A DNA stretch of 64,000 bases, from contig JBDRNT010000069.1 of the NCBI GenBank assembly GCA_043810925.1, forward strand, positions 34,352 through 98,351, in the 5' to 3' direction. The position numbers were made by a program, and so were the translations under genes. Below the pieces are notes generated by a model. The model worked only from the letters and a program-made list of their open reading frames with translations, made no database searches and had not been told where the DNA came from. Origin of the DNA: Candidatus Eiseniibacteriota bacterium. GTDB lineage: Bacteria > Arandabacterota > Arandabacteria > Arandabacterales > Arandabacteraceae. Positions 27,399 through 62,600 of this stretch are shown in pieces (the stretch's first letter is position 1; each line of letters starts with the position of its first letter).

Positions 27399-27420
27399 TT
27401 TGTCCGAAGTCCACATCCAG

Positions 27421-29428: not shown

Positions 29429-29434
29429 ACGAGA

Positions 29435-31159: not shown

Positions 31160-31170
31160 TCTCCCGCGCC

Positions 31171-32391: not shown

Positions 32392-32400
32392 CCGCCCCCT

Positions 32401-33507: not shown

Positions 33508-33526
33508 CTCATCTTCCTCCGGTCAC

Positions 33527-38249: not shown

Positions 38250-38401
38250 AGCGTAGCCAGCCTACACCCGACTTCGAAATGGTGTCAAGCCAATACTTGT
38301 TGGTGCCGGACGCTTCGCGCCGCCGGCATCGGCTGTAGATGCAACGGGCAGTCCGTCCGCAAAACGAACCTGCCGCCGGACCTACCGTTGATCCGCAGCC
38401 G

Positions 38402-46392: not shown

Positions 46393-47682
46393 CTATTGCT
46401 TCGGCCCGAGTACGCCTTTCACTTTCTTCATTGCGCAGTACTCCCCGCACATCGTGCAGAGCGTGGCATCCTGAGGGTGAGAACTCCCTCTCAGCTCGCG
46501 GGCGCGTTCGGGGTCTATCGCCAGATCGAGCATCCGTTTCCAGTCCAGGGCCTTGCGCGCCTCGGACATGGAGCGATCCCACTCGGCGGCTCCCGGTATG
46601 CGTTTCACGATATCCGCGGCATGAGCCGCGATCCGGGATGCCATGACTCCCTCCCGCACGTCATTCGTATCGGGAAGTCTGAGGTGCTCCGACGGAGTCA
46701 CGTAACACAGGAAGTCGGCCCCCGCGGCCGCCGCCACCGCTCCGCCGATGGCTCCAGCGATGTGGTCGTAGCCGGCACTCACATCGGTAACAAGCGGGCC
46801 GAGTACATAAAACGGCGCCTCTCCGCACATCTTCTTCTCCAGAAGCACATTTGCCTCGATCTCGTTTAGCGGGACGTGCCCCGGACCCTCCACCATCACC
46901 TGGACACCGGCCGTCTGCGCGCGTTTAACAAGTTCACCGAGAACCACCAGCTCGCTCACCTGCAAAAGGTCGGTCGCATCCGCCAGTGAGCCGGGTCGTA
47001 AGCCGTCACCCAAACTCAGTGTGGCATCGTAGGTCCTCGCCATCTCGAGAAGATCGTCGTACCGGGAATACAGAGGGTTTTCCTTATTATTGTAGTACAT
47101 CCACTCGAGCATAAAGGAGCCGCCCCGGCTCACGACATCGGTCAGCCGCCCACATTGCTTGAGCCTGTCTATGGCCGATCGCGTCACACCGCAATGGACC
47201 GTGACGAAGTCGATCCCCCACTTGAGGTGTCGCTCGATGCTCCCGAAGATCTCATCTTCGGTCATCTCCACCATGGCCCGCTTGGACCGGACGGCGGTGA
47301 TTGCCGCGCCATAGATGGGTACGCTGCCCACGGGTATGGTAGATGCTTCGAGTACGCCGTCTCGAATCGCGTCGATATCCCCACCGGTGCTCAGGTCCAT
47401 CACCGTATCGGCGCCGGCATCGATGGCCGCCCTGAGCTTCTCAAGTTCGGTCCCGAGGCTTATCTCGTCTGAGGAGCTGCCGATGTTGGCATTGACCTTG
47501 GTCGCTAGTCCAGCACCTATGCCGAGGGCGTATTTTCCCCGGCGAAGTCTGTTCACAGGTATGACGATGGTGCCGTTCCTTAAGCCCTCTGAGATGAAGG
47601 CTACAGGGCGCTTCTCACGCTCGGCAACCACCCGCATTTCATCGGTGATCTTACCTTGTCTTGCCGCTTCAACCTGCGTCAT
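46393..47682 (-). CDS. thiC: Phosphomethylpyrimidine synthase ThiC.
   Basis: The N-terminus [24 protein letters not shown] and the C-terminal [11 protein letters not shown] (CX2CX4C radical-SAM-like cluster) are typical of ThiC. Confidence 0.85.
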
Positions 47683-47735
47683 GTCAGACTCCCATGAGGT
47701 GGGTGGGTGAATTCCCTTGGGGCCCTCCGTGGTTG

Positions 47736-47764
47736 AATATAGGACAGAAATGAAATCAAGTCAA
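47736..47764 (-). promoter_or_regulatory. Sigma70-like promoter (TTGACT-17-TATATT) upstream of thiC, with a ~50-nt leader and no recognisable THI-box.
   Basis: The minus strand reads TTGACTtgatttcatttctgtccTATATT. The ribosome-binding site GGGAG sits 6 nt before the ATG. Confidence 0.35.
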
Positions 47765-47808
47765 CTGTAAGCCCGGATTATTCACGAACCTCCTGGCGAG
47801 GTGTCGCT

Positions 47809-49509
47809 TTAGAAGCGTCTGACCAATCCGAGATGCAGTTTCGCGTCCGACCAGGTGTCGTTTCTGCCCAGGGCTATCTCAAGACGTATGATACCCGTCC
47901 GTGACCCCGCCATGAAGCCAAGACCATAGCCGAAGGGACCTGATCGTATCGAGTCGAACGAGTAGCCGCCACCGTCCAGTGCGGCCCCGTCAAAGAAGCA
48001 GTATACCCGCGAATACTCGCCGAGAAGACGTCTCAGTTCAAGAGTGACGGTGATCGCCCTCTCCACTGTGAACCACTCCTCGGGATAGCCTCTCAGCGTC
48101 CGCATACCACCCATTCTTACCAGATGCGCCTGCGGTATCTCTCCCCGACTTGTAAATACTCCCTCGAACCGGCCTCTGATACCCAGTGCTGTCCTCACCC
48201 CGACCGCCGTGAGATGCTCACCCTCAAGCAACAGCAATGAGATCGTCCGGTCAAGGGATGAGTCGTCCTCGAACTCGAGTGCCGCAACCTCCTGTCTCAG
48301 CTTGACGAATTGTCCGGAGAGCGGATTCAAGGGCCGGTCCCTTCCCTCGTACCTGAGATCGAATGACAGACCGCGCTCGATGAAGTTGCCCTCACCACCC
48401 ACAAGGCTCCGGTCCTTGGTCGAACCCAGAAAGGCGCCCATGCCCAACTCGAGCCTGGGCTCGCCCCTGAAAGTCACCCCAAGCCAGACCTTCCTTCGTG
48501 CGTAGGATGTGTCTATAACATCCGATGAAAGCTCGCATTCCAGGGCAAATGGCTTCGAGAGGATGCGGGGCTCTCTGTAGGCTACACCCCAGCTCAGCCT
48601 CCCGCTGCCCGGTTTCATCCACAGCACCTTGAGTCTCCGGAGTGTGCCGCCCAGGCTCCGAAACTCGAGATCCAACGAGCCGACGAACTTGCTCTCTTTT
48701 CCGGATGGGGAGTAGGCAGCCAGACCTTCGAAGAGACTTGTTCTTGCCTCGACTACATCTATGGTCACGGTCAGCGTTGTGTCCATGCTGTCAAACGTGA
48801 GCACCGGCTCGGACACGTTTTCGAAAATACCCAGGTCCATCAGACGCTGTCTCACGCCTTCGATCTTCTTCCCTTGATAGGGTTCCCCCTCGGAAAGACC
48901 GCTTTCCGCCAGGGCGGCGCTCCGTTTGGTTTTCGTCATTCCCCTGAATACGACGTGACCCACATCAGCCTGCGGTCCGGCCGCAACATGGAGCCGAACC
49001 TCGACCCTTCCATCCCCCACAGAGACCATCTCCGGCCGGACTGTACTCAGGGGGTAGCCGCGAAGATCGTAGAAGGCAAGTACTCGACCTATGCCCTTCT
49101 CAAGCGCCAGCTGCGAAAACGGCCTGCCTGTCTGACCGGCGAACATCTTTTCTAGAACGGATGCCTCCCCGGCGGGCACACCGCTGATTCCGACCGACTC
49201 AAGGACGCTCGGCCGGCCTTCCGAGATCGCTATCTCTATGGCCTCATCGGGCGGGGCGGCCCGCTCACACCTGACTTCAACATCAAGGTAGCCGCGTTCC
49301 CAGTAATGCGCCGCCACCTCGTGGCAGATCGAATCCACACAAACCGAGTCGGACCGAGCACAGGCGATCTTGCCTATCCACTCAAGAATCGCGTCGTCCG
49401 ATAGATCGGAGTTGCCGCTTATGTTGAAGTCAGCCGGGGCCGCGGTTCCGACCATGACGATCACAGCGGCCAGAAAGGCGAGTGTGCAGGGTAGCCTCAT
49501 ACCGCCCAC
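47809..49509 (-). CDS. Omp85-family outer-membrane transporter (TamA/TpsB-like; POTRA domains plus a beta-barrel).
   Basis: Signal peptide, POTRA-like segments, and a C-terminal bacterial surface-antigen barrel ending ...LGLVRRF. Confidence 0.65.
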   Translation of the reverse strand: MGGMRLPCTLAFLAAVIVMVGTAAPADFNISGNSDLSDDAILEWIGKIACARSDSVCVDSICHEVAAHYWERGYLDVEVRCERAAPPDEAIEIAISEGRPSVLESVGISGVPAGEASVLEKMFAGQTGRPFSQLALEKGIGRVLAFYDLRGYPLSTVRPEMVSVGDGRVEVRLHVAAGPQADVGHVVFRGMTKTKRSAALAESGLSEGEPYQGKKIEGVRQRLMDLGIFENVSEPVLTFDSMDTTLTVTIDVVEARTSLFEGLAAYSPSGKESKFVGSLDLEFRSLGGTLRRLKVLWMKPGSGRLSWGVAYREPRILSKPFALECELSSDVIDTSYARRKVWLGVTFRGEPRLELGMGAFLGSTKDRSLVGGEGNFIERGLSFDLRYEGRDRPLNPLSGQFVKLRQEVAALEFEDDSSLDRTISLLLLEGEHLTAVGVRTALGIRGRFEGVFTSRGEIPQAHLVRMGGMRTLRGYPEEWFTVERAITVTLELRRLLGEYSRVYCFFDGAALDGGGYSFDSIRSGPFGYGLGFMAGSRTGIIRLEIALGRNDTWSDAKLHLGLVRRF

Positions 49510-52500
49510 CTAGAACGTGGCACTCAAAGAGGCCTTGACATTGTGGATCGTCGGGATTCCGCTCGTTTTGCGTCCGGTGTATTCAAAGGAAACCGACGTG
49601 TACCTGCCGTGGCGGAGATTGACCCTCGAATTCCAGGTGAACGAATCCCGCACCGGGTAGAGGGTCGCACTGGAGTATTCCGAACGGATGACCCTCCTGA
49701 GACTGCAGCCCGCATCACAGCGAAGGGCCCCGCTGAAGACGGTGATACCGGGGGAGGCGTTGACCTGCATAAAGGCTGATGTGGGTTCGGACCGCTCCTC
49801 ATTGAGTAGTTCCAGCCGCACTTGACTCCGCACGGCCGACACGATATTCCGGTCAAGACTGAGATTGGTGCTCCAGGTGTCCCTCGTCGGTTCAACACTG
49901 CCGGACGTCATATCTATTGTCGATCTCGTCGCCGTCAACCTGCCGGCCAGGGTGACCCTCATCTTCTTAAAGGCGCTGCTCAGCAGCCGGGTCTGTAACT
50001 CCGTCGTCGTCTTGCTCTCTTTCCTCTCGATACACCTGTTGTCGCGAAACCTCGAACCCTTTGCGTTAAGTGTAAGCGTAAGACCTTTCCCGCGCCGGAA
50101 GACCAGCTCCTCGCTGACCGTCATCCTCCCGAAGACCATCTCGTCACTCCGAAGCAAGTGGGCGGGGTAAAGAAATGCAATCCGTTCCAATTCCTGTGTC
50201 GAACTCTCTCCCTCGATGTCGATCCCGGTCCTTGCCGAGACAGCTCTATCCAGCAGGACCTTACCCCTTCTGCCCAGTTCGAGCACCAGGTCCGCCTTGA
50301 CCCTTGTGACAGGCTCTTTCCCCTTCTCAGACCTCGACATCACGTACCCACCCGCACCCGGGACGTAGTTGCCGAGACTGTCATAGTCGCCGCCTCCGCT
50401 CACCTGTACCAGTTCGGCGTCATAGACAGTCGTGAGCGCATTGGACAATCTGTAGTCGATTGACATGGAGCTGACCGCCAGGACATCCCGGAGATCGAAG
50501 TGGAAGTCACCGCTGGTGATCCGTTGTCCGCCTGCGGCCGTCTCCCGGGTATACTCTATCCTGCGCTGTGTTACTCCTCCTCTTATCAGGAGTCTTCTCT
50601 GCCGCGCCGTCTCAAACTCCAGCCTCCCCTCGACCTCGGATGAGTATTTGTCCCACCCGGCCCCCCTGTCCCTGTCCTCGGAGCCCGCGGAAAAAGCGAG
50701 CGAGACCTGCCCTCCGGTCCCGGACAGTTCCACTTGCGAGGAGTAATCCGTCCGCCGGGTGGATGTACTGTCGACGAGCTTCGACTTCGTCTCATGGTTG
50801 CGGCCCAGCGTAAGCTGCAGGAACTTGACCGGTATCCTGACGGCGATCCCGTTCCTGTCGATACCCTTCTCACTTGCGACCGACGACATCCGGGCGGTCT
50901 GTGAACTTGCGGTAAGCCCGAGACGCCTGTCTCCCAGTTCGAGCCCGGCCTTCCGCCTGAGCGACCGGCCCGAACTCGTTTCCATCGTGCCGATTTCAAA
51001 CGACGATGCAACCATATCATTCAGCTTATAGTCGAGACCGATCTCGTTCGCGTCCTCAAAACCGTCCTCTGCATCCTGCGCCCAGACCTCCAGGAAGTCC
51101 GGTCTTCTGAGTCTGTCAAACCCGATGTAGGTCTTCCCCACAGACCGTTTCTTCGCGCTCAGGCCGAGTGAGCCCACACTCCGTCCCCCAAGATCCGGAA
51201 GGTCCGATCTGCCCTGGACGGCCACGGTATAGGCCCTCCCCTCCTCTTCCTCCCAGGTTCCCGCCTCGGTCTTCGTATGTCCCTTTGACTGCGCCACCTC
51301 CGACGTCAACTCAAGCCACTCAGCCGGCCGGGCCGACGCACCCACATGAAAGACCCTGGCGCCAAGAGGCCGGCCAGCACGCACCTTGTCCAGGTATGCA
51401 CCGGTACCGGTATAGACGTAGACATAGACCGCCCATATCTCGGAGTAGATGTAGCTGTAGGTTCCCTCCCCCTCACCGACGAGTGTGAAGGTGACGTCGT
51501 AATCACCAAGACCTTCACCGACATATTCGTAGTAAGCAACCGTGTCGCTTTCGATGCGGATGTAGGAGCCGCGACCCATCCCGGCAAACCTACCGCCATC
51601 GACCCACTCGCGGGCGCCGTCGGTTCCGCTCGCAAGCAGTTCAGCCCCGGCACCTGCTTGCTCCTCAGGCTGGTTCGCACCGGTCTCGCTTACGAAGTTG
51701 ACCGCGACGGACGCCCGGTCTCCGATATCAAGACTCGACCGGCCGAAGTAGAACTGCCTGTTGCCGTCACGATCGGGGGACTCGTAGTCCACCACGATTC
51801 GTGCACCGTCTCTTACCAGATGTCTGGGGTTAAAGCAGATTTCTCCCGATACGTAGTCGATCGTGTAGTCTGCGTTGTCCCCACGCTTCAGCGGTTTGCC
51901 GTCGAGCCAGACGGACTCACTCCCCCTGACTATGTCTGTCTTCTCGCCATCCGCACGCTGGACAACATAGGGGCCCGTTATGCCCTCTCTGCCTCTGATC
52001 ACCACGGACTCGTAAGCGCTTCTTGAAGTGGCCCCGGACAGAGCCACACCCTTTGAACCATGTGAAGCATCCGCAAAAAAGCCGGTCATGCTTCTCCTGA
52101 ACCGGAGCAACTCCCCCGGAGATTCGTCTATTTCGAGGTCGCCGACCCTGGCATAGGCCCCGGAGGAGCGGACCTCCATGAAGACCCTGTCGAGATCTCT
52201 GAGTTTGCTGGTCGAGGTGCTACGGCTCAGCGACATGTCCTTGTCGGTCAGCACACCTTTGACATCAACCCCCTCACCTATCTTCCCGCCGATCGAGAGA
52301 TTCAGTGACTGGTTCATGCTGAAGTCGTTGAGCGTTCCGGTCTCCACGCTTACGGTCTTGGAACCGGACGCCCTGAGGTCATAACCCTTTTCCTTCTTTG
52401 CCGGCCGGATCTCCGCCCGCCGCGCGCCGAGACCGGGACCCGGAGCTTCATCGATTACCCTCAGGCTGTAGTCGGTCTTGAGCGGAAACGGGAAAACGGA

Positions 52501-52860
52501 GTACTTGATACGAACACATTCCTCAAGCGTGAGGCTGTCCGGGATAAGGACGATGCCCCGGGCATAATCCATCCGGTAGTCGGTTCCCCTTACCAGCATC
52601 CTAGCACCTGTCAATACGGTGTCGCTCGAGGCAATAATCAACCGGCGCGACAGATGGATCGCACCCGCACCCAGATCATCACCGCAGCGCACTTCCTCAC
52701 GCTGACAGGATACGCTGACTCCCTCAGCGCGGATCCCCCCGGCAGAGGCCGAAAGCGCCACGGCAAGCACCACCCCGAGAACACTACTGCGTGGATGTCT
52801 CAATCCTGAATACCTCGATCGACATACTTCCGGGATCGGCCACACAGACGACACCGTCAT
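49510..52860 (-). CDS. Very large (about 1,100 aa) beta-rich envelope protein ending in Phe; TamB/AsmA-like or a giant OM barrel. Function unknown.
   Basis: The long ORF (up to 52944) is strongly beta-strand-biased with alternating hydrophobic residues and ends in an OMP-like ...SLSATF. The start is uncertain (ATG at 52860, or GTG near 52773 just before the hydrophobic segment VLGVVLAVALSASAGG). It abuts the Omp85 gene with no spacer. Confidence 0.4.
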   Translation of the reverse strand: MTVSSVWPIPEVCRSRYSGLRHPRSSVLGVVLAVALSASAGGIRAEGVSVSCQREEVRCGDDLGAGAIHLSRRLIIASSDTVLTGARMLVRGTDYRMDYARGIVLIPDSLTLEECVRIKYSVFPFPLKTDYSLRVIDEAPGPGLGARRAEIRPAKKEKGYDLRASGSKTVSVETGTLNDFSMNQSLNLSIGGKIGEGVDVKGVLTDKDMSLSRSTSTSKLRDLDRVFMEVRSSGAYARVGDLEIDESPGELLRFRRSMTGFFADASHGSKGVALSGATSRSAYESVVIRGREGITGPYVVQRADGEKTDIVRGSESVWLDGKPLKRGDNADYTIDYVSGEICFNPRHLVRDGARIVVDYESPDRDGNRQFYFGRSSLDIGDRASVAVNFVSETGANQPEEQAGAGAELLASGTDGAREWVDGGRFAGMGRGSYIRIESDTVAYYEYVGEGLGDYDVTFTLVGEGEGTYSYIYSEIWAVYVYVYTGTGAYLDKVRAGRPLGARVFHVGASARPAEWLELTSEVAQSKGHTKTEAGTWEEEEGRAYTVAVQGRSDLPDLGGRSVGSLGLSAKKRSVGKTYIGFDRLRRPDFLEVWAQDAEDGFEDANEIGLDYKLNDMVASSFEIGTMETSSGRSLRRKAGLELGDRRLGLTASSQTARMSSVASEKGIDRNGIAVRIPVKFLQLTLGRNHETKSKLVDSTSTRRTDYSSQVELSGTGGQVSLAFSAGSEDRDRGAGWDKYSSEVEGRLEFETARQRRLLIRGGVTQRRIEYTRETAAGGQRITSGDFHFDLRDVLAVSSMSIDYRLSNALTTVYDAELVQVSGGGDYDSLGNYVPGAGGYVMSRSEKGKEPVTRVKADLVLELGRRGKVLLDRAVSARTGIDIEGESSTQELERIAFLYPAHLLRSDEMVFGRMTVSEELVFRRGKGLTLTLNAKGSRFRDNRCIERKESKTTTELQTRLLSSAFKKMRVTLAGRLTATRSTIDMTSGSVEPTRDTWSTNLSLDRNIVSAVRSQVRLELLNEERSEPTSAFMQVNASPGITVFSGALRCDAGCSLRRVIRSEYSSATLYPVRDSFTWNSRVNLRHGRYTSVSFEYTGRKTSGIPTIHNVKASLSATF

Positions 52861-53707
52861 CCCGGCAAGCGATGAATGCGGGCATCTCGAGCAAGCCCTC
52901 ACCGAATGAGCTGATGAACCCGCCGTCGGCAGAGAACACGGCAATCACGGCGCGCTCTGAATCCGATACCAGCACGTACCGGTCAAGATATGACGCGAGC
53001 CCGAACGGGCTCTGGAAATCGAAACCGACGAGCGCTTTGCGGGGTTTTCCAAAGGGGCTCAGCATCAGCACCTGCTCGGAGAATGCCTCGGTCACAAACA
53101 CGTTTCCGAGTTTCCCGGTAAGGCAATCCACCGGGTATGTACCACCATCACCGCTTGAGACCACAGCCTCAATCGGCTCGCTATCCCCCGATAGATCCAC
53201 AATGCGGATCGTACCCGCAATGCCCATGGCAGCGTAGATCTGCTCCGGCTTCCCCAGACCGAGCCCCGTAAGACCTTCCCCGACCTCCCTTGCCGACACA
53301 AACTCCCCCCAGCGGTCATAGACCAGGATCGATCCGGCGGTCTTCTCAGAAACGTAAACGCCCGCAGCGTTACCGGTCTCGATGTCTATCAGCTGGCAGT
53401 CACTGAACTCATCCGGACATCGCGCAAAGAGAGTGATACCATCAAGCGAATCCGGTAGCACAAAGATCCTCGAGTTATCCGAATCAATCACATAGAGTTC
53501 GCCGAACAATCCGAAGTCCAGGCCGAGTGGGGCGAACGCAAAACCGCTTCCGGACTCCTCGCATGGAATGGACTTCAGGTGTCGTGTCGAGATCTCACTG
53601 GATCCGCCGCCGGCGGGCTCCGAGCATGAAGCGAGGCCGGCAGCCCCGATACACGCCACCGCTGCCAGCAGTGATACACGTCTCATTATCTGTAGAGGTA
53701 ACATCAA
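52784..53707 (-). CDS. NHL-repeat (six-bladed beta-propeller) lipoprotein.
   Basis: Lipobox LASCS after the signal peptide. Repeated ...GxVxVxDxxNxRIxV-type blades. Confidence 0.6.
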   Translation of the reverse strand: MMLPLQIMRRVSLLAAVACIGAAGLASCSEPAGGGSSEISTRHLKSIPCEESGSGFAFAPLGLDFGLFGELYVIDSDNSRIFVLPDSLDGITLFARCPDEFSDCQLIDIETGNAAGVYVSEKTAGSILVYDRWGEFVSAREVGEGLTGLGLGKPEQIYAAMGIAGTIRIVDLSGDSEPIEAVVSSGDGGTYPVDCLTGKLGNVFVTEAFSEQVLMLSPFGKPRKALVGFDFQSPFGLASYLDRYVLVSDSERAVIAVFSADGGFISSFGEGLLEMPAFIACRDDGVVCVADPGSMSIEVFRIETSTQ

Positions 53708-54390
53708 AATGATGTGGAAAGGTAGAACCTGTAACTGTCCTGCGCCCTCTTTTCAACCCTCAAACTGGGATATGAGGACCGCTCGCCACGGTCTGCGAGT
53801 CTGAAGGTAAGATAGATGTCTATCATGCTGACCACCCGGTTTAAGACGGCGAACCCCGTGGTCAATACGGCGTGTCTGTACGATCCGCGGCTCAGGGTAC
53901 GCGTTTTTGCGAACTCGTCCCGCTTCTCCGCACTCTCCCACTCCCACGCGGAGGTCCCGAAATAACCATTCGCGTCGAAATAGGCCAGCTGATCCTCTTT
54001 GTCATCCGGGTACAGATAACGTGCTTCACGCATTACGTCTATATTGTAATCCTCATTGGAGCCGTAGTAGGCCAGGGCGATTGCGTAGTCATCGGCGATA
54101 TCACCCCCGACGCCCGCAAACAGCCTTGCCATTTCCTTGTACTTGTCCTTCCTCATGCCACCCTGGATCCGGTAACCGGCAAACGCTGTCCAGACCCCTG
54201 CTTCGGCTACATACATCATCCGCGCTCTGCCATGGTTACCGAGATAGTGCTGGCCCGCACCGGGCAAAACGAGAGAATACAACAGAGCCTTACGGAGTGA
54301 CCTGTCCCCACCGCCATCATCACAGTAGCCGGCTGCCACACACCCCAGCAGGGTTACCGCAACCACACAGAACTTAAGTGTATATCTCAT
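53704..54390 (-). CDS. Secreted hypothetical protein, paralog A. Shares a conserved S.VLPG.GQ.Y.G motif with the next gene.
   Basis: Signal peptide. Motifs LLYSLVLPGAGQHYLG and RVVSMIDIYL. C-terminal ...YLSTSF. Confidence 0.5.
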   Translation of the reverse strand: MRYTLKFCVVAVTLLGCVAAGYCDDGGGDRSLRKALLYSLVLPGAGQHYLGNHGRARMMYVAEAGVWTAFAGYRIQGGMRKDKYKEMARLFAGVGGDIADDYAIALAYYGSNEDYNIDVMREARYLYPDDKEDQLAYFDANGYFGTSAWEWESAEKRDEFAKTRTLSRGSYRHAVLTTGFAVLNRVVSMIDIYLTFRLADRGERSSYPSLRVEKRAQDSYRFYLSTSF

Positions 54391-54393
54391 GTA

Positions 54394-55311
54394 TCAGAAC
54401 CTCATCTTCAGACCGACTTTGACATTCGGGTTGCTGCCCAGCCTGGCCTTGAAGGTCAGACGCGGGTTCGTGCCGACACCGGCAAGATCCCGGTTCCTGA
54501 ACTTGGCCATGATCGCCGCGTCGACCATGCTGACAACTCTGCCTATTACCATCACCCATGCATAGCGATCGGCCTTGCCATAGAAATCATCCGCTTCCGC
54601 CCGCATGCCCTGATACTGTGTCCTGTTAGAAGAAGTACTGGGAATTCCCGCGGGCAACGTACCGTAGGGATCCCAGTCCACCCAGAGCTCCTCGGGGAAC
54701 TGCACATCACCTGTACTCCAGTCATCCCACCCAAACACATATCTGTCCTCTGCACCTATCTGTTCGTAGAAGGCCCCACTGCCTTGATCTGACAGCGGGA
54801 ACACCACATGTATCTCCTCCCAGCATCTCAAACTGTCGTAGATCCCGGGATCGGTACAAAAGCCGAAGTCACCGTAGCCACTGTGGACTGCGATCGTGTC
54901 GCGCACGTACCCGGTGAAGCGCTGCGTGCTGTAGTGGTCTTCGGCCCAGGCTTCGTACTCGCCCTTCTTGTCGTCCCCCTTGCCTGTGTTGTTGAAATAT
55001 CTCCACATGGAAAAGAGATCAGCAGCAGCCATCACTCCTCCGCTCGCATAGCCCCTTCTCCCACCCACATAGGCCTGTCCAAGCCCCGGGAGAACCGCGG
55101 ACAGCAGCATGGCTTTTGCCACCGACTTGCGGTGCAGCACGACACTCCCGCCGACCTCTACAGGCGCATCCTGTCCACCTTCATCGGTGATATTGCCGAT
55201 ACTGGCCCTGGCCTTTACATCAAGGTCATCATCCATGCCGCAGACATTGGAGAGAGTTACAAACGTCAGCAGGACGAACCCCGCTACCAAGATGCTGAAC
55301 CGGTGCGCCAT
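54394..55311 (-). CDS. Secreted hypothetical protein, paralog B.
   Basis: Signal peptide. Motifs MLLSAVLPGLGQAYVG and RVVSMVDAAI. C-terminal ...GLKMRF. Confidence 0.5.
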   Translation of the reverse strand: MAHRFSILVAGFVLLTFVTLSNVCGMDDDLDVKARASIGNITDEGGQDAPVEVGGSVVLHRKSVAKAMLLSAVLPGLGQAYVGGRRGYASGGVMAAADLFSMWRYFNNTGKGDDKKGEYEAWAEDHYSTQRFTGYVRDTIAVHSGYGDFGFCTDPGIYDSLRCWEEIHVVFPLSDQGSGAFYEQIGAEDRYVFGWDDWSTGDVQFPEELWVDWDPYGTLPAGIPSTSSNRTQYQGMRAEADDFYGKADRYAWVMVIGRVVSMVDAAIMAKFRNRDLAGVGTNPRLTFKARLGSNPNVKVGLKMRF

Positions 55312-55321
55312 GCCCTACCTC

Positions 55322-58300
55322 CTACCTCTTTACGGCCAATTTGAAGAACTCACTGGTCCGGGCACCGTTGCCCTCAAGACTCAGCCTGCAGACATAAAGC
55401 CCGCTTCCCAGGTCGCTGATATCCACGTCCGGGACTGTCACCTTCGGTACCTGCGATTCGGCATTGTATCTTACGGTCTTGACTATAGTACCTGTTACAT
55501 CGAAGACCTCTATCGTCACCGCACCACCGGTGTCGGTCTCAAACCGGAAACTGACTTCATTCCCGCCGCCCTCGCTGCTGTACGCAACACCGGCCGGGTT
55601 GGGAAATGCGTGGAAACTGCCTTTGACAAGCAACCTGCTGCCCGGCTGCGGTGCATCGGGCATCTGATCGATTGGATAGACACAGTTCCTGCTTGAGTCG
55701 AAATACGCCGTCTTCCATGGGGCCGGATTCGTATCGGTCTGTCCCGGATGCAAAAATGCATAGACTGAACCGTCTCCCCCACCGGTCACGAGCTCAAGCC
55801 TGCCGTCCCCGTCGAGATCGCCCAACGCTGCCGCCGAGCATCCTCCCCCGAGTGTTACCGGAAAACCGCTCATCCTCTTACCGCCCGCTTCCCACGCGGT
55901 GATACACTCAAACAGCGTGCCCTGTATTACATCTATTGCCCCATCACCATCGAGATCGCTCGCAATCGGCGATGGAACCGATATCGTCGTGTCCGCCGGA
56001 TAGTAGTCCTCGTCCCACTCGGGCAGGGCGCAGCCATAGCGTGAATTAGGCCACCCGTCGGCAGGGCTACCGCTTCGAAGCACCACCCAGCTCTTGTGCT
56101 CGTCATCGTTCAGGATCATCTCCAGGTAGCCGTCCCCGTTGACGTCTGCGATAGCCGGAGGGGAGACCACACCCCTGCATACTCTCCTGCCCCACCCCGG
56201 TAACTCCCGTCCCTCACCATCCACGACCCACATCCATCCGTTGTCGCCCACGACTATGATCTCATATGCAGGCTCCCCGGCCCTGTCAAGATCTGCGGCC
56301 GCCAGATAGACATGTCCGGGATCCAGGTCACAGGAGAACGGGTAGGTGGCAATTACCCGGCGGGCTGAGTAGGAATACACTACGATCTCACCCGTTCTGT
56401 AGTATACAATCTCCGCGCCGATCGAGTCGGGAAGGAGATCACATACAACCGGCCGGCTGAATCCACCGTCATCACCTCCGTCCAGGCGAAGGTCTATCAC
56501 CAGGTTGCCGGGCAGACCGCCGAGGACATACAACGCAGAGTCTGTTGCGACGATTGCCTCATCGTGCCCGTCCCCACCAAGATCGTATGCAACCACCACA
56601 CCGTTCACGTGACCGTTGACCGTGTAAAACGCTCCACGCCAGTCGGCACCGAAGAAATAGGGCGAGCCACCGGCCGTGAAGGCATAGAGATGATCGGTCT
56701 CGTCACTGAACACCACCTCATCGACCCCGTCACCGTCAAGATCCGCTGCGACCAGTTCCGTGGGATGCGACCCATGAGGCCTTTTCGGCCAACCCGGCAA
56801 GCTCACCGGACTGCCGGCTTCGTCGAGCTCGTAGGCGTCTATTCGAGATCGCTCCCAGACCACCCCCGCAGTGTCCCAGTATGCCCGCTTAAGAGCAGAC
56901 CTTATCTCGGCCCTGCCGTTACCATCCAGGTCCGAAACGAGAAGTGAAGGCACACCAAAACGCATAGAGTCTCCCAAGGCGTACGGGAAGCCGGGTCTAC
57001 TCCAACTATACGAAACACGGAGATCCATGGAAAGACCGGAATCGCTTATCTGGTCGATGACCACATGTGAATGACAGCCGGTATTACTGCGTGTGTTGGG
57101 ATAGGTGTCATCGGCCATCCTGTCGTTATTACCGCGTCTGAAGGGGTCGTCGGGTCCGCCGAGAAAATAGAACGAATTGAAGTCACCCAGATCCGGGATA
57201 CCGTCCGCCTCTTTGAGCGTCAGACCGCGCCGCTCGGGAAACGCATTGATGAGATCAAATGGACCGAGCCAGTCGATCCAGGCAGCGTCCGCGTGCCAGA
57301 TCAGAAGTCCGCTCCCCGGAAGCACGAAGTCGTACTCGTAGTTCAGGTTATCGTTTCCGTCAGCCGGCCCGATTATCACGCCCGTTGAATCTTCGCTTGG
57401 ATCGGTGAGCACGTAGGCCGAGTCGTTTCCATCAAGGTCGGCCTGCCTGTTCTCTATGAGGTAGCACTCGTTTGAGTTTATCGGTACTGCAAGCACGTCC
57501 GTGTTGGGAAACTCACCCTGGAGCTCGGTGGCATCAAGAGTGAACGATCCCCCGCCGACAACCGTATCGGCAACGGCCCAGCCGAGCTCGATCTTGCTCC
57601 ATGCGGATATCGAAGCCGGCAGGATGCCGGATACATAGTATGCCTCCCCGGTTCGCTCATCCTCCACCACCACCCCTACACCCGAGCCGAAGTCCATCAG
57701 GTCCCAGTAGCCGACAACACTCATGCCCGAGTAGGTGTCATACAGATCGGGCAGCCCCAGCTGATGGCCCACCTCATGCGCGAGCACACCGTTGAGGCCG
57801 TTAAAGAAGTCATCCTGGCTGGTCGTCTCCGGGACGACGCTACCGTCGACGATGAAGTGGGTACCGCCTTCCACCTCGATGCTGTCGCCGATCGATATGA
57901 AGAATGAGGGAATGTCATAAGGCGTATCGCCGTATATGTCGTTCTGCCAGTCCGAGCCGGCATGGAAGATCACCACGGCATCGAACTCGCGGAAGTCAAG
58001 ATCAGGGTCCTGGTCGGCAACGGTGATCGCATCACGGAAGAAAAGATCGAGACCGTCAAGCGACCACGTGTAGACCCCGCCACTGGGATTATAGTCGCCG
58101 ATATCGGGAAGTACGTAGGCGGCGTCGTTTGCGAGTGGAAAGACCTCCGACTCGATCTTAAGACTTCCATAGGACATGGCGTCGTAGTAGTGGGCAAGTG
58201 CTTCCATGTGCTTGGAGAAGTACTTGCGGTCATGAGGTGACGGGTCGATCGGAATCTCTTCCCGTTTGTCTCTGAGATCGAATCTTCCGCCGGCACCGGT

Positions 58301-58600
58301 GATCCCCGAAGGGTCCGGGACGCGTGCGAACTCCACCCGGATCGCACAGATCCGAAGCACATCCTGTATCTCCTGGGCCGCCGTCATGGGGCCCTTCCTC
58401 TGCCTTGAGGTCAGGAGTTTCCTGGTTGACGGCATATCCTTAATCGGGGCGTTTATCCACCGCTTGAGCCGCTTGTCCATCAAACTCTGGAACTCGGCGT
58501 TCTCACCGGGCGGTCTGACCTTGACGACCCCGGCACACACCAGTTCCCCAGCTGCCACCACCCACACCAGAATCATTATCAATGTCAGAGTTGTCTTCAC
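55322..58600 (-). CDS. Secreted multi-domain protein: M6 (InhA-like) metalloprotease, FG-GAP/VCBS beta-propeller repeats and a T9SS C-terminal sorting domain.
   Basis: Signal peptide. HEXXH motif VLAHEVGHQLGLPDLYD. Multiple DLDGDG.DE/FG-GAP-like repeats. C-terminal AFPNPAG...VFDVTGTIV...GLYVCRL, a CTD-like tail. Confidence 0.7.
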   Translation of the reverse strand: MKTTLTLIMILVWVVAAGELVCAGVVKVRPPGENAEFQSLMDKRLKRWINAPIKDMPSTRKLLTSRQRKGPMTAAQEIQDVLRICAIRVEFARVPDPSGITGAGGRFDLRDKREEIPIDPSPHDRKYFSKHMEALAHYYDAMSYGSLKIESEVFPLANDAAYVLPDIGDYNPSGGVYTWSLDGLDLFFRDAITVADQDPDLDFREFDAVVIFHAGSDWQNDIYGDTPYDIPSFFISIGDSIEVEGGTHFIVDGSVVPETTSQDDFFNGLNGVLAHEVGHQLGLPDLYDTYSGMSVVGYWDLMDFGSGVGVVVEDERTGEAYYVSGILPASISAWSKIELGWAVADTVVGGGSFTLDATELQGEFPNTDVLAVPINSNECYLIENRQADLDGNDSAYVLTDPSEDSTGVIIGPADGNDNLNYEYDFVLPGSGLLIWHADAAWIDWLGPFDLINAFPERRGLTLKEADGIPDLGDFNSFYFLGGPDDPFRRGNNDRMADDTYPNTRSNTGCHSHVVIDQISDSGLSMDLRVSYSWSRPGFPYALGDSMRFGVPSLLVSDLDGNGRAEIRSALKRAYWDTAGVVWERSRIDAYELDEAGSPVSLPGWPKRPHGSHPTELVAADLDGDGVDEVVFSDETDHLYAFTAGGSPYFFGADWRGAFYTVNGHVNGVVVAYDLGGDGHDEAIVATDSALYVLGGLPGNLVIDLRLDGGDDGGFSRPVVCDLLPDSIGAEIVYYRTGEIVVYSYSARRVIATYPFSCDLDPGHVYLAAADLDRAGEPAYEIIVVGDNGWMWVVDGEGRELPGWGRRVCRGVVSPPAIADVNGDGYLEMILNDDEHKSWVVLRSGSPADGWPNSRYGCALPEWDEDYYPADTTISVPSPIASDLDGDGAIDVIQGTLFECITAWEAGGKRMSGFPVTLGGGCSAAALGDLDGDGRLELVTGGGDGSVYAFLHPGQTDTNPAPWKTAYFDSSRNCVYPIDQMPDAPQPGSRLLVKGSFHAFPNPAGVAYSSEGGGNEVSFRFETDTGGAVTIEVFDVTGTIVKTVRYNAESQVPKVTVPDVDISDLGSGLYVCRLSLEGNGARTSEFFKLAVKR

Positions 58601-58612
58601 AAAGAACGCTCC

Positions 58613-59626
58613 TTAGAGTCTGTAGTTTAAAGAGAACTTGTTCTCCCTTCCCAGCTCCTCGGCTTTGGGTACGCTCGCGTAATCGAAGTCCAGCCCGCCG
58701 CCGACGGGCACGCTGATCCCGAAACCGTAAGTGAAGCCTTCGATCTTGCCATCGTGGTCATAGATATAACCCAACCGGGGCGCCACGAAACCCGCTATCA
58801 TCAGTTCCGCCCCACCGTTTAAGGTGGCATCTCTTCTGATCGCGCTCGTCTTGAATCCATCGAAAATCTCATTCAGTCCGATCAGGGTCTTGGCAAACTC
58901 CGTCGATATCAACAGCGAATAGCCTTCACCATAGAACGGCTTGAAGGCTATACCGGTCCGCAGGGTCCTGGGCAGCGGCGCCGACTCGTCCTTGCTTACG
59001 AAACTCATGTCGGGACCGAGATTCTGAAGCGCAGCACCATAGGACAGCCGGTCATTGATTCTCCCGAGGAACCCGAAGTCCGCCGCGAAACTCCAGCCCG
59101 CACCCTCGACACCACCCGTCTCAACCGTCGCAGGGGCAAGGTACACGCGGGATATCTTGAGGCCCACGCCAAACGCATTCCTGCTGTTTAGCTTGAAGGC
59201 ATAGTATCCGCCGAATGCGAATTCATAGCTAGTGTGCTCCTGCACCGGGATGCCTTCCCTGGTCGTCTCCCACCACTTACCGTAAGTAAGGTAGATCGCA
59301 CTGAATCCGAGCGTTCCGATCTCAGGGATGGCGTGGGACACATTGATCGATTCGAAATAGACATCGTCCGCGAGCATAGGGATCAGCTGACTGTGCGTCA
59401 TCGACATACGGGTGCCGTCCAAGAACCCGAGCCCACCCGGGTTCCAGTACATAGCAGTCGCATCATCGGCAATCGCCACGAATGACTGTCCCAATCCCCA
59501 AGCACGTGCCGACGGTGAGATTATCAGTGATGGGGCAGCTGCCTCCCCAACCGCCAGCACTTCAGAAGAAGCAAGCAGAGCCAACATCGACACCAGAAAC
59601 AACACCCTACGCATCATTCTGTCCAA
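58613..59626 (-). CDS. PorV/PorQ-like outer-membrane protein (FadL-like beta-barrel associated with T9SS).
   Basis: Signal peptide, then ARAWGLGQSFVAIADDATAMYWNPGGLGF, the N-terminal motif I associate with PorV/PorQ/PorP-type T9SS barrels. Positioned immediately downstream of the PorU-like gene, as in porU-porV operons. Confidence 0.55.
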   Translation of the reverse strand: MDRMMRRVLFLVSMLALLASSEVLAVGEAAAPSLIISPSARAWGLGQSFVAIADDATAMYWNPGGLGFLDGTRMSMTHSQLIPMLADDVYFESINVSHAIPEIGTLGFSAIYLTYGKWWETTREGIPVQEHTSYEFAFGGYYAFKLNSRNAFGVGLKISRVYLAPATVETGGVEGAGWSFAADFGFLGRINDRLSYGAALQNLGPDMSFVSKDESAPLPRTLRTGIAFKPFYGEGYSLLISTEFAKTLIGLNEIFDGFKTSAIRRDATLNGGAELMIAGFVAPRLGYIYDHDGKIEGFTYGFGISVPVGGGLDFDYASVPKAEELGRENKFSLNYRL

Positions 59627-59632
59627 CCTCCA

Positions 59633-62600
59633 TCATCGTATCAGTACAAGCACTATTGTGTCCCGGGTGCTGAACCCGGGCTCAGACGGAGCAGTAGCCT
59701 CTACCACGGCCAGATAGGCTCCGTTTGCGACGGCATCACCCGCCATATCGGTGCCGTCCCATCTTAGCTGGAAGTGAGAATGCGGACCCGAAACGATACC
59801 TGCCCATATCTCCCTTCCCGACACCGTGTATATCTTCGCGCTGATTTCAACCTCAATGCTGTTATCGTTCTCGTATTCCCAGATGATATAGCAGTCCTCG
59901 TGTGCAGGATTGGGGTACGCATAGACCGTATTGGCCGCACCGCTCACCGGAGAGCCGACATAGATGCTGTAGTCATCCGTGGTCAGGTTGTTGAGATTGT
60001 CAAATGCGGAGACACTCAACTTGTGTTCACCCACTGCGAGCGGCGGAACGACGAACGCGGCCTCAGACACTGTGAAATCGCCATCCACAGCGTGAACACT
60101 CTCCGCAAGGTTCACCCTCTCGACATCGTCGTATGCTATCGACACAGAGGGAATGAATTCCGACTTACCCTTGATCGCCACACCACTTTCATCCGAGAGC
60201 CGGATGTCCACTCTTGCACCTACGGACAGGGTATCAACAGGCGCTACGGTCTCACCGTTATAGATAAGCTCTATCTCGGGACCTTCATCATCATCTGAGA
60301 AACCCTCTCCGCTCACCACCAGGCTGTCAAGCATGCCCGAAGCGGAGACAATCCCGTCCGTGGCAAAACACTTCACCGTAGCCGCACTACCCTGACGGGC
60401 ACTGGCGGACATGAAGAACCTCGAATCGAACACGCCGCTCTGAACGTCCGACCTGCCCCTGAACACCTCGAGACCGGGAAGAGCGTAATCGAAAAAGACC
60501 AGGGGATTGCAGCTCTGGTAACCGGTCGTATCCTCGGCCTCACGGACACAGATGTTCGCCTGGACACCGGACCACCCTACGATGCCGCCCTGGTCATGGA
60601 TGCTCGCCTGGAATTCATAAACGCTTTTTCTTGAGAGCGTTTCAGGCACCGTAGTCTCAAAAACGACATCAAGAAGCGGTGTAGCCAGCTCCAGCATAGG
60701 ATCGCCGAAGAGCGCATAGACTTCATTGTTCATCCAGTATGTCCTCCGGTCCGACGCGGACGCAATTGTCAGCCACTTCGCCAGGGCTACCGCATCTGCG
60801 ATCGGAACAGTGGGGTCCTTATCTCCGGTGGGAAATAACTGCTGGATAACGTTGAGATTCATTATCTGATTCGGCAGCGGAAAGGCCAGGTGTGTAGATG
60901 CAAGTGATCCGATGGTCCCGCCTCCGGGACGCCGGAGCAGGTTCTCTGCAACCGAAGATGACTGGGGCTCGTCGAATTTGCTGACATTACAGCTTGCCGC
61001 AATCAGGAAGGTCTCCCGGCGGCCCGTCTCGACGAGATCGACCGAGGCGGGGTTAAAGACCTCTTCCTGGGTCCACCTGAACTGGTCCCCGTGACCCACG
61101 AAATTGGTGATCAGGGCACCCCGGTTCAGATGTTTGACAAAATCGGCCCTTGCTTTGGGTTTAACCCCGCCGGTATCCATCGGGTATTCGGTCAGATATA
61201 TCTTTACATGGTCAAACACACGCGGGTAGGCCTCGTCACTCAACTCCTCGACGTTCCCGACATGCGGGCTATTCTGCTCACAGCCTTGGTTCACGTGGTC
61301 ATCGTCGGCTACGAGGATCACCCTGTTCTGCCACAGCCCACACTCGGGATTCGATGCGTAATTCAATTGCTTCGCAACCAGGAGCTCCGCCTCCTCCGGG
61401 GATGCGGCAGGAAGCCGTGAGATCCCGACCGTCGGGTAGTCGGCAATGCTGTCGTTGCGGACCGGCGCAAGGTAGGCAAACCAGTCATCGGTGTTGTACG
61501 GGTTTCCAAACGGCGGCAGATACCTGCGTTCATACGATGGAACATAATTCGGATAGGGGGCATTCTGTATGTAACTCTTGTAATCCCAGGTGGCATCGCC
61601 GAGAAGCAGTACCCATGACAGCGAACCGCTCTCATACCTCCACCTTAAGAAATCCCTTATCGCGGTCACGTCGGGAACACCCCAGCCGAATTCATCGAAG
61701 ATCTGCTCAGTGGTCACCACTTCACCATCATGGAAATCAGAGATCGTTGTCGCGGCATCAAGCAGGTCTTCATGCGTGACCACACAATAGGGTGCACCGG
61801 GTCCATTGCGGATGTCGGCGATCGCGGCCTGACTCATTGCGGCAGGCTTTCGGAGCGCACCTGGTGCGACGACCGCATAGCGCCGTGGCATCCCCTTGCT
61901 GATGGTATCACGCACCGTGAACGCGTATGAAGTAAAGCCCTCGCCGGTCGTGTCCTCGGCGCCCAAGAGCTCCCGTATATCGAACTGGTCGGTCACATCG
62001 AAGACATAGACCGAAGGTGAAGTGAACCCGCCTATAGCATATTCCACAGTGCAGGTGGAATCCGGAGCGGGAAAGAAAATCCGGTTTCCCACAGCAGTGA
62101 ACTTCCTCCAGTAGTAAAACTCCAGCCACGCCACATAGAGCTGGTCGCAAACACTCTCTTCTTCATAAGGCGGAAGCAGGTCGGAGGGAGCTTCCATTCT
62201 CAGCGATTGGGTTTGCGTGGCCGTTAGCCGCGTGGTCTCTGCCCTGACGTCTACGACTCTGAGGTTCGACGATGAGGCCCGCCAGGTCGTATCCGCTATC
62301 GCCGGTCGACCGTTGAGCTCAAGGATCAGCCTGTAGAAAGCGTTTGCACACCCGCTGCCTGCCTCAAATGAGAACCAGTCGGCGATACGAGCTTTGACGA
62401 CCGCCTTCCTGTCGGTATCCGGGAACGGCGTATCCAGGGTGAAGAAGGTAGGACTGTCGATCCTGAGATGCCGCCAGTACCAGCCGTCATCCGCACGGAC
62501 ACCGAAGTTGACGAATACGTCCTTTTCCATGTGAACGCGTTCGTAAAACGACTCCGGCACGTAGGCAGAGCAGCCGTCGCATCCGGGCATCATGACAGTC

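Follow-up and report, generated by a model that had tools for sequence, protein, structure and literature searches.

Among the known clients of the outer-membrane assembly machinery, barrels with more than 30 strands are the most difficult, and their mode of construction is an open question. One such barrel is SprA/Sov (TIGR04189; structures 6H3I, 8GL6 and 8GL8), the translocon of type IX secretion (T9SS), in which a single chain of 2,300-2,500 residues forms about 36 strands and carries an extracellular cap exceeding 150 kDa. In Flavobacterium, PorV binds the lateral opening of SprA. We know of no SprA encoded alongside a dedicated Omp85 protein or an NHL lipoprotein. Among assembly factors, BamA has five POTRA domains and a 16-strand barrel and is aided by BamB, a propeller lipoprotein with eight PQQ-like blades. 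TamA, with three POTRA domains and 16 strands, is paired with the very large beta-rich protein TamB, and the pair has a proposed role in the assembly of difficult outer-membrane proteins. LptD, a 26-strand barrel and a demanding BAM substrate, holds the lipoprotein LptE in its lumen. TpsB, the Omp85 partner in two-partner (type Vb) secretion, has two POTRA domains.

The trio of genes described here is a conserved, widespread and unannotated outer-membrane module that encodes a propeller lipoprotein, a barrel of about 1,100 residues and a BamA-like insertase. Three open reading frames, all on the minus strand, were verified in the window (the whole stretch of DNA analysed, 64,000 nucleotides): an NHL lipoprotein, a giant protein and an Omp85 protein. 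The longest reading frame of the giant runs from 49510 to 52944 (1,144 aa); its likely start is the TTG at 52803, which is preceded by a GAGG at a distance of about 9 nt and is supported by P0001, the deposited protein, and by every homolog. With this start, the overlap at the NHL stop codon (52784-52786) is in fact 20 nt and not 161 nt. An earlier note on this DNA had proposed tight coupling of the three genes and an overlap of the first two; both were borne out. Overlaps of 1-23 nt at this junction recurred in homologous loci, where the gene order was also conserved. In the window, the giant/Omp85 junction was about +9 nt. The Omp85 reading frame (47809-49509) encodes 566 aa, and the deposited protein P0050 begins three codons later, at ATG 49500.

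The trio forms the 3' end of an eight-gene outer-membrane operon of a Candidatus Eisenbacteria genome that reads, 5' to 3', porU, porV, the M6 protease gene, two DUF5683-like genes, NHL, giant and Omp85, with junctions of -20 to +12 nt (Table 1). The five upstream genes had been overlooked in the earlier note. The promoter-like site ahead of thiC likely marks where the operon ends on its 3' side. Scanning 47000-64000 against Rfam turned up no RNA families.

Table 1. Features of the operon and its 3' flank (positions in the window)
Feature	Position	Strand	Details
PorU, T9SS C-terminal-signal peptidase/sortase	59633..63661	-	NCBIfam NF033707 T9SS_sortase 526 bits (cut-off 420); Pfam Peptidase_C25 E = 3e-73; operon gene 1
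PorV/PorQ-family outer-membrane shuttle protein	58613..59626	-	NF033709 PorV_fam 182 bits (cut-off 90); Pfam PorV E = 1e-13
M6-like metalloprotease with FG-GAP repeats, putative cargo	55322..58600	-	Peptidase_M6; FG-GAP; NF052323 272 bits (below its cut-off of 600)
DUF5683-like small envelope protein a	54394..55311	-	Pfam DUF5683 30.3 bits (cut-off 26.7)
DUF5683-like small envelope protein b	53704..54390	-	Pfam DUF5683 21.4 bits, below cut-off
NHL six-bladed beta-propeller lipoprotein, 307 aa	52784..53707	-	Pfam NHL 23.9 bits (cut-off 20); first of the conserved trio
Giant outer-membrane protein, 1,097 aa	49510..52803	-	Deposited protein P0001 100% identical
Small domain copy 1, aa 49-92	52528..52659	-	SprA model TIGR04189 positions 597-640; piecewise NCBIfam 18.2 bits, E = 2.7e-4
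Small domain copy 2, aa 289-342	51778..51939	-	TIGR04189 positions 602-653; 38 bits, E = 3e-10
Predicted giant beta-barrel region, aa 142-1097	49513..52380	-	Includes two inserted beta domains, ~aa 271-345 and 377-480
BamA-like Omp85 insertase paralog, 563 aa	47809..49500	-	Pfam POTRA 72 bits, Omp85 barrel 35.5 bits
Promoter-like site	47736..47764	-	In the 126-nt gap before thiC; 10/12 consensus matches, best of the region; consensus scan only

The five genes directly upstream show the trio to be part of a type IX secretion operon. The M6 protease contained an HEVGH motif, recognised by eye, and a weak match to the T9SS type-A sorting domain (Por_Secre_tail, 19.8-22 bits, below both curated cut-offs of 27 and 23). 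The two DUF5683-like genes were paralogs that fell into one BLAST cluster, and gene a was retained in the T9SS-linked form of the locus. Because the trio closes this operon, it does not read as a TamB-TamA pair and may instead be a secretion pore of half size that comes with an assembly factor of its own.

The giant protein had the features of an integral outer-membrane protein. By eye, its N-terminus (MRHPRSSVLGVVLAVALSASA, followed by GG) is a cleavable Sec signal peptide with a hydrophobic core of 14 residues and an A-S-A site, rather than the signal anchor that had been considered; homologs carried the same short type of signal peptide. The C-terminus ends in a canonical beta-signal, SLSATF. 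The terminal Phe, previously described as typical of outer-membrane proteins, is real, and an aromatic last residue was present in 73 of 76 diverse homologs (consensus R.EVRAFF). In the AlphaFold2 (AF2) model (pLDDT 77.5, pTM 0.58), a small domain preceded a barrel of about 36-40 strands; the DSSP string showed some 40 long strands at aa 142-1096, and both the strand count and the closure of the barrel were read from it alone. Most of the C-terminal 600 residues had a pLDDT of 80-95. Prediction and conservation support a protein that would be exported by Sec and form a single closed barrel of some 36-40 strands in the outer membrane.

These features bear on the two explanations raised when the locus was first noted. 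A TamB-TamA-like module would make the giant a beta-taco that is anchored in the inner membrane and spans the periplasm, with the Omp85 protein as its TamA. The arrangement is suggestive, since an Omp85 protein of TamA size with three POTRA domains is directly preceded by a large beta-rich protein, and TamA structures were strong fold matches to the Omp85 protein (E ~3e-29). However, the giant matched no Pfam family at E <= 0.01, and profiles for DUF490/TamB, AsmA and TPS, which the earlier note had singled out for searching, were likewise absent from it and from 40 diverse homologs. Its signal peptide is cleavable, its C-terminal beta-signal is conserved, and structure prediction gave a closed barrel in place of a beta-taco. 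The closed barrel had been anticipated as the outcome contradicting a TamB-like protein; the barrel is not, however, a plugged SusC/TonB receptor, which had been named as an example, and neither a TonB box nor a plug domain was found in the giant and diverse homologs. The gene order is the reverse of that of the Tam genes, and the Omp85 protein scored 22 bits on the TamA equivalog NF047950 (cut-off 625). Three independent defining features therefore refute the TamB-TamA reading, which we regard as very improbable. No tamB was found in the 64-kb window; a 1,040-aa reading frame at 15563-18685 that had been considered for it encodes a Big_1/invasin Ig-repeat protein.

Two-partner secretion, in which the giant would be a TpsA passenger and the Omp85 protein its exporting TpsB, was still less probable. 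The pairing of an Omp85 protein with a large beta-rich neighbour and a weak match to the ShlB-type POTRA_2 domain (17 bits, below the 24-bit cut-off) are in keeping with it. Against it, the TPS (haemagglutination activity) domain is absent from the giant, as first noted, and the fold predicted for the giant is that of an integral barrel bearing a beta-signal rather than a beta-helix; these two features refute the reading. A giant-then-Omp85 order and three POTRA domains are also atypical of TpsB, no FhaC-type structure appeared among the best 50 fold matches of the Omp85 protein, and that protein is BamA-like.

Foldseek searches with the giant model returned only barrels as top matches, led by SprA chains (6h3i, 8gl6, 8gl8) at E ~1e-10 but with a TM-score of only ~0.25. 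The sequence link to SprA lies in a small domain of about 50 aa that SprA and the giant have in common. Both copies in the giant fall on one region of the SprA model, positions 597-653, and the protein as a whole scored 38 bits on TIGR04189 over those positions only, so that it did not pass the equivalog cut-off of 200. Copy 2 is the best-conserved stretch of the giant family (G.EG.QGPY...GTE.V..DG..L.RG..NDY.IDY..G.ITF, with invariant columns). The SprA model matched 36 of 39 close family members and 21 of 40 diverse ones and was the sole family matched by most of them; a phage tail model was matched by 9 of the 39, and the small domain also had weak matches to the phage tail models DUF2460 and TIGR02217. 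Over the barrel there was no detectable sequence similarity. PDB sequences were searched with the giant itself, with two homolog profiles (39 and 76 members) and with one profile built from the conserved 90-aa domain; no SprA, the F. johnsoniae protein (6H3I) included, and nothing else significant was recovered. Piecewise NCBIfam searches (E <= 10) that covered barrel regions from two family members recovered nothing except the small domain. That similarity to SprA is confined to about 50 aa while the barrel pieces match nothing argues against a T9SS channel.

Like SprA, the giant is a predicted single-chain barrel of very many strands, belongs to the FCB superphylum and is encoded with PorV, PorU and possible sorting-domain cargo. 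At 1,097 aa (family range 1,040-1,243) it is less than half as long as SprA (~2,400 aa), and the extracellular cap is therefore missing. It resembles LptD in being a large barrel with a lipoprotein partner, but the barrel is much larger, neither an LptD/OstA domain nor an N-terminal beta-jellyroll was detected in it, and the lipoprotein, unlike LptE, is an NHL propeller. Deinococcus SlpA (8AE1, 7ZGX) is trimeric and unrelated in phylum and genomic context; the SLH domain and coiled-coil stalk that distinguish it were not found in the giant or in diverse homologs.

The Omp85 protein comprises a signal peptide, three POTRA domains (aa 25-251) and a 16-strand barrel (aa 255-562) with a C-terminal Phe; its AF2 model (pLDDT 88.5) showed the same three POTRA domains and 16 strands. 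The TamA-like size first ascribed to it was correct, and its architecture is also that of TamA. The loop-6 motif TLRGY was intact, with R470 and Y472 invariant and G471 at least 90% conserved in 45 homologs. Its best Foldseek matches (BamA, 1e-30; TamA, 3e-29) placed it in the BamA/TamA class. By sequence it was much closer to BamA than to TamA: profile searches of the PDB gave E = 1.6e-48 for Neisseria BamA, with POTRA 3-5 aligned, and 8e-19 to 1e-8 for TamA. Prediction and conservation both support a BamA-type insertase. Partner proteins of this kind are named "POTRA domain-containing protein" by NCBI and often "BamA" or "TamA" by JGI; neither of the latter names is safe. No lipobox was seen by eye at the cleavage site of the N-terminus, MRLPCTLAFLAAVIVMVGTAAPA; the protein is not a lipoprotein and therefore not a TamL of the Bacteroidota type. 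The best Omp85 match from outside the family, P0098, was rejected as a canonical Eisenbacteria BamA, being a BamA from Myxococcota (Kofleriaceae).

The lipoprotein assignment made at the outset was correct. Besides its Pfam match (Table 1), the NHL protein matched the six-bladed propellers of TRIM-NHL proteins in the PDB (E = 3e-15 to 1e-12), and a lipobox, L-A-S-C with Cys28, was evident by eye. The blade number sets it apart from BamB, which it resembles as a propeller lipoprotein encoded next to an Omp85 gene.

The likeness to BamA and BamB raises the possibility of a housekeeping BAM locus, in which the Omp85 protein would be the essential BamA of the lineage cut to three POTRA domains, the NHL protein its BamB-like partner and the giant a co-transcribed client or T9SS component. 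Beyond the BamA alignment, the RGY motif and the propeller, this would fit with pyrH and frr (recognised by eye) just upstream of the trio in one subclade, as near bamA, and with the lack of a second Omp85 gene in the 64-kb window. T9SS genes, porG and skpA, are also known at the bamA locus of Bacteroidota (PMC12611786, PMC12773653). However, the protein failed the BamA equivalog TIGR03303 (94.6 bits against 297), aligning through the POTRA region alone (model positions 168-470), and its Pfam barrel match was weak. None of skp, lpxD and fabZ was found downstream of the trio in ~80 loci. The gene is instead strictly coupled to one giant client gene, directly downstream of it in 67 of the 79 loci with room and absent there in 12, and NCBI naming stops short of BamA. 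We therefore consider a housekeeping BAM locus unlikely. The trio also did not correspond to the new BAM subunits of Bacteroidota, BamG, BamH, BamM and BamP, a set made up of a FadL-like barrel, two lipoproteins (one with a carbohydrate-binding fold, the other with a PPIase fold) and a periplasmic protein.

A profile search for the giant (E <= 1e-3) found 4,358 representative clusters at 50% identity; all source names checked read "hypothetical protein", and no Pfam or NCBIfam model exists for the family. Homologs of 20-86% identity kept the gene order in dozens of independent contigs, which shows that the trio are real genes and not chance reading frames. Across 104 loci, the only recurrent neighbours were Omp85 (77) and NHL (76), with every other family at 20 or fewer; where there was room (84 loci), the NHL gene lay directly upstream of the giant gene in 71. 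The full trio was present in 52 of the 67 distinct loci that had enough flank; of the others, six had the giant alone, five Omp85 only and four NHL only (Fisher p = 7e-4). One clade of eight loci, including Chloroherpetonaceae, had the giant without either partner. NHL-giant-Omp85 is thus a conserved core, seen in about 100 loci across lineages of the FCB superphylum, and the suspicion that the module is novel was well founded. We did not find it described in the literature on T9SS in Eisenbacteria, Gemmatimonadota and Zhuqueibacterota, on short SprA forms or on DUF5683.

Linkage of the trio to T9SS genes occurred in several deep branches but was not universal. The PorU-PorV-M6-DUF linkage occurred on both sides of the deepest neighbour-joining split of the giants and was retained at 20-35% identity in at least four deep branches (the Eisenbacteria clade, the L004/5/21/22 clade, L024 and L093), with varying downstream genes (thiC or ligA). 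In most loci of the largest clade, porU and porV did not adjoin the trio. Lineages of this kind still encoded T9SS type-A sorting-domain proteins nearby. Jackhmmer matches near the trio in the large clade that had looked PorU-like were not PorU; they were sorting-domain cargo (S8 and M1 peptidases and a Calx-beta protein). Such cargo was found near the trio in ~19% of loci, which by our estimate approximates chance if these proteins are numerous in the genomes concerned.

A rival reading is a giant channel unrelated to T9SS, for example an uptake pore for large substrates with a lipoprotein lid or an SlpA-like envelope anchor, that needs its own Omp85 protein and lies beside porU and porV through historical synteny. 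The largest clade, the near-chance frequency of cargo and a SprA match that consists of a single small domain, found also in phage tail proteins, all point in this direction. Persistence of the PorU-PorV-M6-DUF linkage at such low identity argues against it, as do the absence of SLH, coiled-coil, TonB-box and plug features and the far fewer and weaker matches to phage tail models than to SprA. On balance this reading appears unlikely.

Because it shares an operon with PorU, PorV and possible cargo in several deep branches, the giant is most likely a compact outer-membrane channel of T9SS type, or part of one. The explanation that we favour, with a probability of roughly 45%, is that the giant is a channel associated with the T9SS, served by a dedicated BamA-like insertase and partnered by a propeller. 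The Omp85 protein would be an assembly factor dedicated to the giant barrel or a stable partner of it. By analogy, the propeller lipoprotein may aid the Omp85 protein as BamB aids BamA; alternatively, or in addition, it may close off the very wide lumen as a plug or cap, in the manner of LptE in LptD or Plug in SprA. The barrel would pass folded cargo, which PorV and PorU would then process. A stronger version is possible though doubtful: the giant may be a minimal T9SS translocon, a barrel-only SprA of less than half the size, accompanied by a BamA-like insertase of its own and by a propeller lipoprotein for assembly or gating. Its role in Eisenbacteria, Zhuqueibacterota and related lineages of the FCB superphylum would be that of an ancestral or alternative pore for the T9SS. 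SprA has been reported in most FCB phyla (PMC12611786), so genomes with the trio may also hold a canonical SprA.

The giant family merits a Pfam or NCBIfam model of its own. With the full trio in 52 of 67 sampled loci, the module offers a natural, compact system in which to study client-specific barrel assembly. If the giant barrel is also the T9SS pore, it would define a minimal translocon and would reveal what SprA, at 2,400 residues, can do without.

The window derives from a metagenome-assembled genome of Candidatus Eisenbacteria, and the three open reading frames claimed by the earlier note were present in it as described: an NHL lipoprotein gene, a gene for a giant protein and an Omp85 gene. 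The giant protein was 100% identical to an NCBI entry named 'hypothetical protein' on a 147-kb contig. Because its supported start is a TTG codon, its gene overlaps the NHL gene by 20 nt; the gap between the giant and Omp85 genes is 0-9 nt. Junctions were likewise tight in homologous contigs, where gene calls showed overlaps of 1-23 nt. An eight-gene operon, its junctions spanning -20 to +12 nt, ends with the trio; PorU, a PorV/PorQ-family protein, an M6-like metalloprotease and two DUF5683-like proteins are encoded ahead of it.

Features of the operon and its surroundings (positions in the window)
Feature	Position	Strand	Remarks
Second M6 (immune inhibitor A-type) peptidase	5038-6828	plus	596 aa
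Type IV pilus cluster	15563-35230	minus	PilB, PilT, PilC, sensor kinase with sigma-54 response regulator, PilM, PilN, PilO, PilQ
SagB-type dehydrogenase domain protein and TonB-dependent receptor-like protein, adjoining	37551-40516	minus	receptor-like protein 704 aa
126-nt gap upstream of thiC	47683-47808		contains promoter-like site, a good sigma-70-like match
Omp85 ORF	47809-49509	minus	deposited protein from ATG 49500, 563 aa
Giant ORF	49510-52944	minus	supported start TTG 52803, 1,097 aa
NHL protein	52784-53707	minus	
Two DUF5683-like paralogs	53704-55311	minus	305 and 228 aa; between M6 protease and NHL gene
M6-like metalloprotease	55322-58600	minus	1,092 aa; FG-GAP repeats; weak, sub-threshold T9SS type-A sorting-domain match
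PorV/PorQ-family protein			operon gene; 182 bits vs cut-off 90
PorU			operon gene; NF033707, 526 bits vs cut-off 420

In NCBIfam, the M6-like protein encoded in the operon was closest to 'T9SS-dependent M6-like inactivated metalloprotease', at 272 bits (cut-off 600). Since its HEVGH zinc motif is intact, the protein may be an active protease; its sorting domain is borderline. Each DUF5683-like protein has a signal peptide, the hydrophobic motif 'LPG.GQ.Y.G' and a C-terminal Phe. These genes accompany only the porU/porV-linked version of the locus, and no literature on DUF5683 was found. No TPP riboswitch was detected in the thiC gap at Rfam gathering thresholds; a thiC gene without one is unusual.

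Apart from the type IV pilus cluster, other parts of the window carry housekeeping genes and a TonB-dependent receptor; no second Omp85, TamB or GldKLMN was found within the 64 kb. Directly downstream of pilQ lies a gene for a 1,040-aa protein of Big_1/invasin Ig-like repeats, followed by one for a small OMP_b-brl-like protein, and the TonB-dependent receptor-like protein is extended at its N-terminus by a long acidic, repeat-like stretch. Nearly every 2-kb bin showed negative GC skew and the minus strand carries almost all genes; among plus-strand genes with an assigned family, only the second M6 peptidase is substantial. Skew and strand bias are consistent with a location on a single replichore whose genes are strongly co-oriented.

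The earlier note had tentatively read the giant and Omp85 genes as a TamB-TamA-like pair or a novel two-partner module. The giant protein matched no Pfam family, and searches of 40 diverse giant homologs revealed no TamB, AsmA, TPS, SprA_N, LptD or TonB-receptor domain. Read by eye, its N-terminus is a normal Sec signal peptide. The C-terminus is ...SLSATF, and the last residue was aromatic in 73 of 76 diverse homologs (consensus R.EVRAFF); Omp85 insertases classically recognise such an ending. AlphaFold2, given 39 homologs, predicted a small domain at the N-terminus, two inserted beta domains and about 40 long strands (residues 142-1096, counted from the DSSP string of the model; pLDDT 77.5, pTM 0.58). 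All strong structural matches in Foldseek were closed outer-membrane barrels. Prediction and conservation support a giant barrel that is exported by Sec, bears a beta-signal and is integral to the outer membrane. The Sec signal peptide, beta-signal, closed-barrel matches and lack of TamB or AsmA domains therefore rule out TamB, leaving a TamB-TamA module very improbable. A TpsA passenger is likewise ruled out by the beta-signal, the barrel matches and the absent TPS domain; no TpsB (FhaC-type) transporter was among the 50 best Foldseek hits listed for the Omp85 model, and two-partner secretion is an extremely improbable account of the locus.

The Omp85 protein contains Pfam POTRA and Omp85 domains and, judged by eye from its N-terminus, is not a lipoprotein. 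Its AlphaFold2 model, built from 45 homologs, had three POTRA domains and a 16-strand barrel (pLDDT 88.5) and grouped in Foldseek with BamA (E = 1e-30) and TamA (E = 3e-29). The family profile reached Neisseria BamA at 1.6e-48, with an alignment over POTRA 3-5 and into the first part of the barrel, and TamA at just 8e-19 to 1e-8. The RGY motif of loop 6 was kept across the 45 homologs, with R470 and Y472 invariant and G471 nearly so. The protein fell below the cut-off of the TamA equivalog model (22 vs 625 bits). The NHL protein scored above the Pfam NHL cut-off, matched TRIM-type six-bladed NHL propellers (E = 3e-15) and carries an N-terminal lipobox, LASC, read by eye. Prediction and conservation support a shared locus for the giant, a propeller lipoprotein and a BamA-type insertase.

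Could the Omp85 instead be the lineage's own shortened BamA? Its sequence is BamA-like, and in one subclade (loci L034, L039, L047, L048 and L051) inspection by eye placed pyrH (UMP kinase) and frr (ribosome recycling factor) directly upstream of the trio, a context that resembles the classical bamA neighbourhood. However, the protein fails the BamA equivalog model (94.6 bits vs a cut-off of 297), the skp/lpxD context is missing, and the gene is strictly coupled to that of the giant; we consider a shortened BamA unlikely. On the downstream side of the trio, the same subclade encodes a UbiA-like prenyltransferase, Dtd, Maf and an Mpl-like ligase (by eye).

Relatives of the giant numbered 49 in a word-indexed search; an exhaustive profile search recovered 4,358 representative clusters at E <= 1e-3, of which 2,111 also passed E <= 1e-30. 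Among the best 150 of the 4,358, nearly all were full-length (1,048-1,243 aa) and about a dozen were shorter and apparently truncated. Every source name retrieved was 'hypothetical protein', and the organism labels were Eisenbacteria, Zhuqueibacterota, Gemmatimonadota, 'Bacteroidota bacterium' MAGs and Chloroherpetonaceae. Genome and metagenome collections yielded 104 loci, which we annotated with local HMMs and clustering. The giant was encoded at every one of them but L007, a BamA control locus obtained separately, and the window itself raises the number of giants to 104. Omp85 was encoded directly downstream of the giant at 77 loci and the NHL protein directly upstream at 76; no other gene family occurred in more than 20 of the 104. 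Because these two alone recur beside the giant, the trio picked out by the earlier note is precisely the conserved core. Among distinct loci with enough flank, Omp85 was found in 67/79 and the NHL protein in 71/84. Where there was room on both sides (n = 67), 52 loci had the trio, 6 the giant alone, 5 only the Omp85 partner and 4 only the NHL partner (Fisher p = 7e-4). A monophyletic clade of eight giants that includes one from Chloroherpetonaceae (L023, L086, L096-L100, L102) has neither neighbour: both partners were lost or never present. A published survey reported Chlorobiota without SprA (PMC12611786).

The SprA/Sov model TIGR04189 was the only curated family matched by most giants (36/39 close and 21/40 diverse homologs; best E = 3e-10), and the four best-ranked large Foldseek matches included three SprA chains (E ~1e-10), then Deinococcus SlpA. 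In a piecewise NCBIfam scan, residues 49-92 and 289-342 of the giant both mapped to the same ~50 SprA-model positions, whereas the barrel pieces had no match. The small matching domain also weakly matched phage tail models, and PDB searches with giant-family profiles missed F. johnsoniae SprA. With sequence matches confined to this domain and PDB SprA undetected, the link is real but narrow: we take the giant to have this domain and a fold class in common with SprA, not to be an established ortholog.

Gene order suggests a further tie to type IX secretion. The order porU-porV-M6-DUF-(DUF)-NHL-giant-Omp85 was kept across the whole Eisenbacteria clade, and the same porU-to-Omp85 order was found in three further deep branches (L004/L005/L021/L022; L024; L093), whose giants are only ~20-35% identical to that of the window and in which ligA instead of thiC lies downstream of the trio. 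When a neighbour-joining tree of 92 giants was rooted at its midpoint, the deepest split had porU/porV-linked loci on either side, suggesting an ancestral linkage that the largest clade later lost. Lineages of that clade still have T9SS type-A sorting-domain proteins near the trio, at a frequency we estimate to be about chance level. Coupling of T9SS and Omp85 genes has a Bacteroidota precedent in porG and skpA at the bamA locus (PMC12611786, PMC12773653); the new BAM subunits of PMC12611786 were considered as counterparts of the trio and are unrelated to it. We regard a channel unrelated to type IX secretion, with dedicated assembly factors, as rather unlikely.

We favour, at a probability of roughly 0.45, a T9SS-type giant channel with a dedicated Omp85 and a propeller partner. 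The Omp85 would serve as a client-dedicated insertase, or a stable partner, for an unusually large barrel, and the propeller lipoprotein might have a BamB-like role or plug or cap an otherwise very wide lumen. The giant barrel itself would be a compact T9SS-type channel, or part of one, passing folded sorting-domain cargo on to PorV and PorU.

No published description of the NHL-giant-Omp85 combination was found in the literature, and its parts are members of known superfamilies. Its tie to type IX secretion is credible but unproven. The trio is a real, large, unannotated three-gene outer-membrane module that extends across the FCB group, and it is more interesting than the label 'TamB-TamA-like' conveys.
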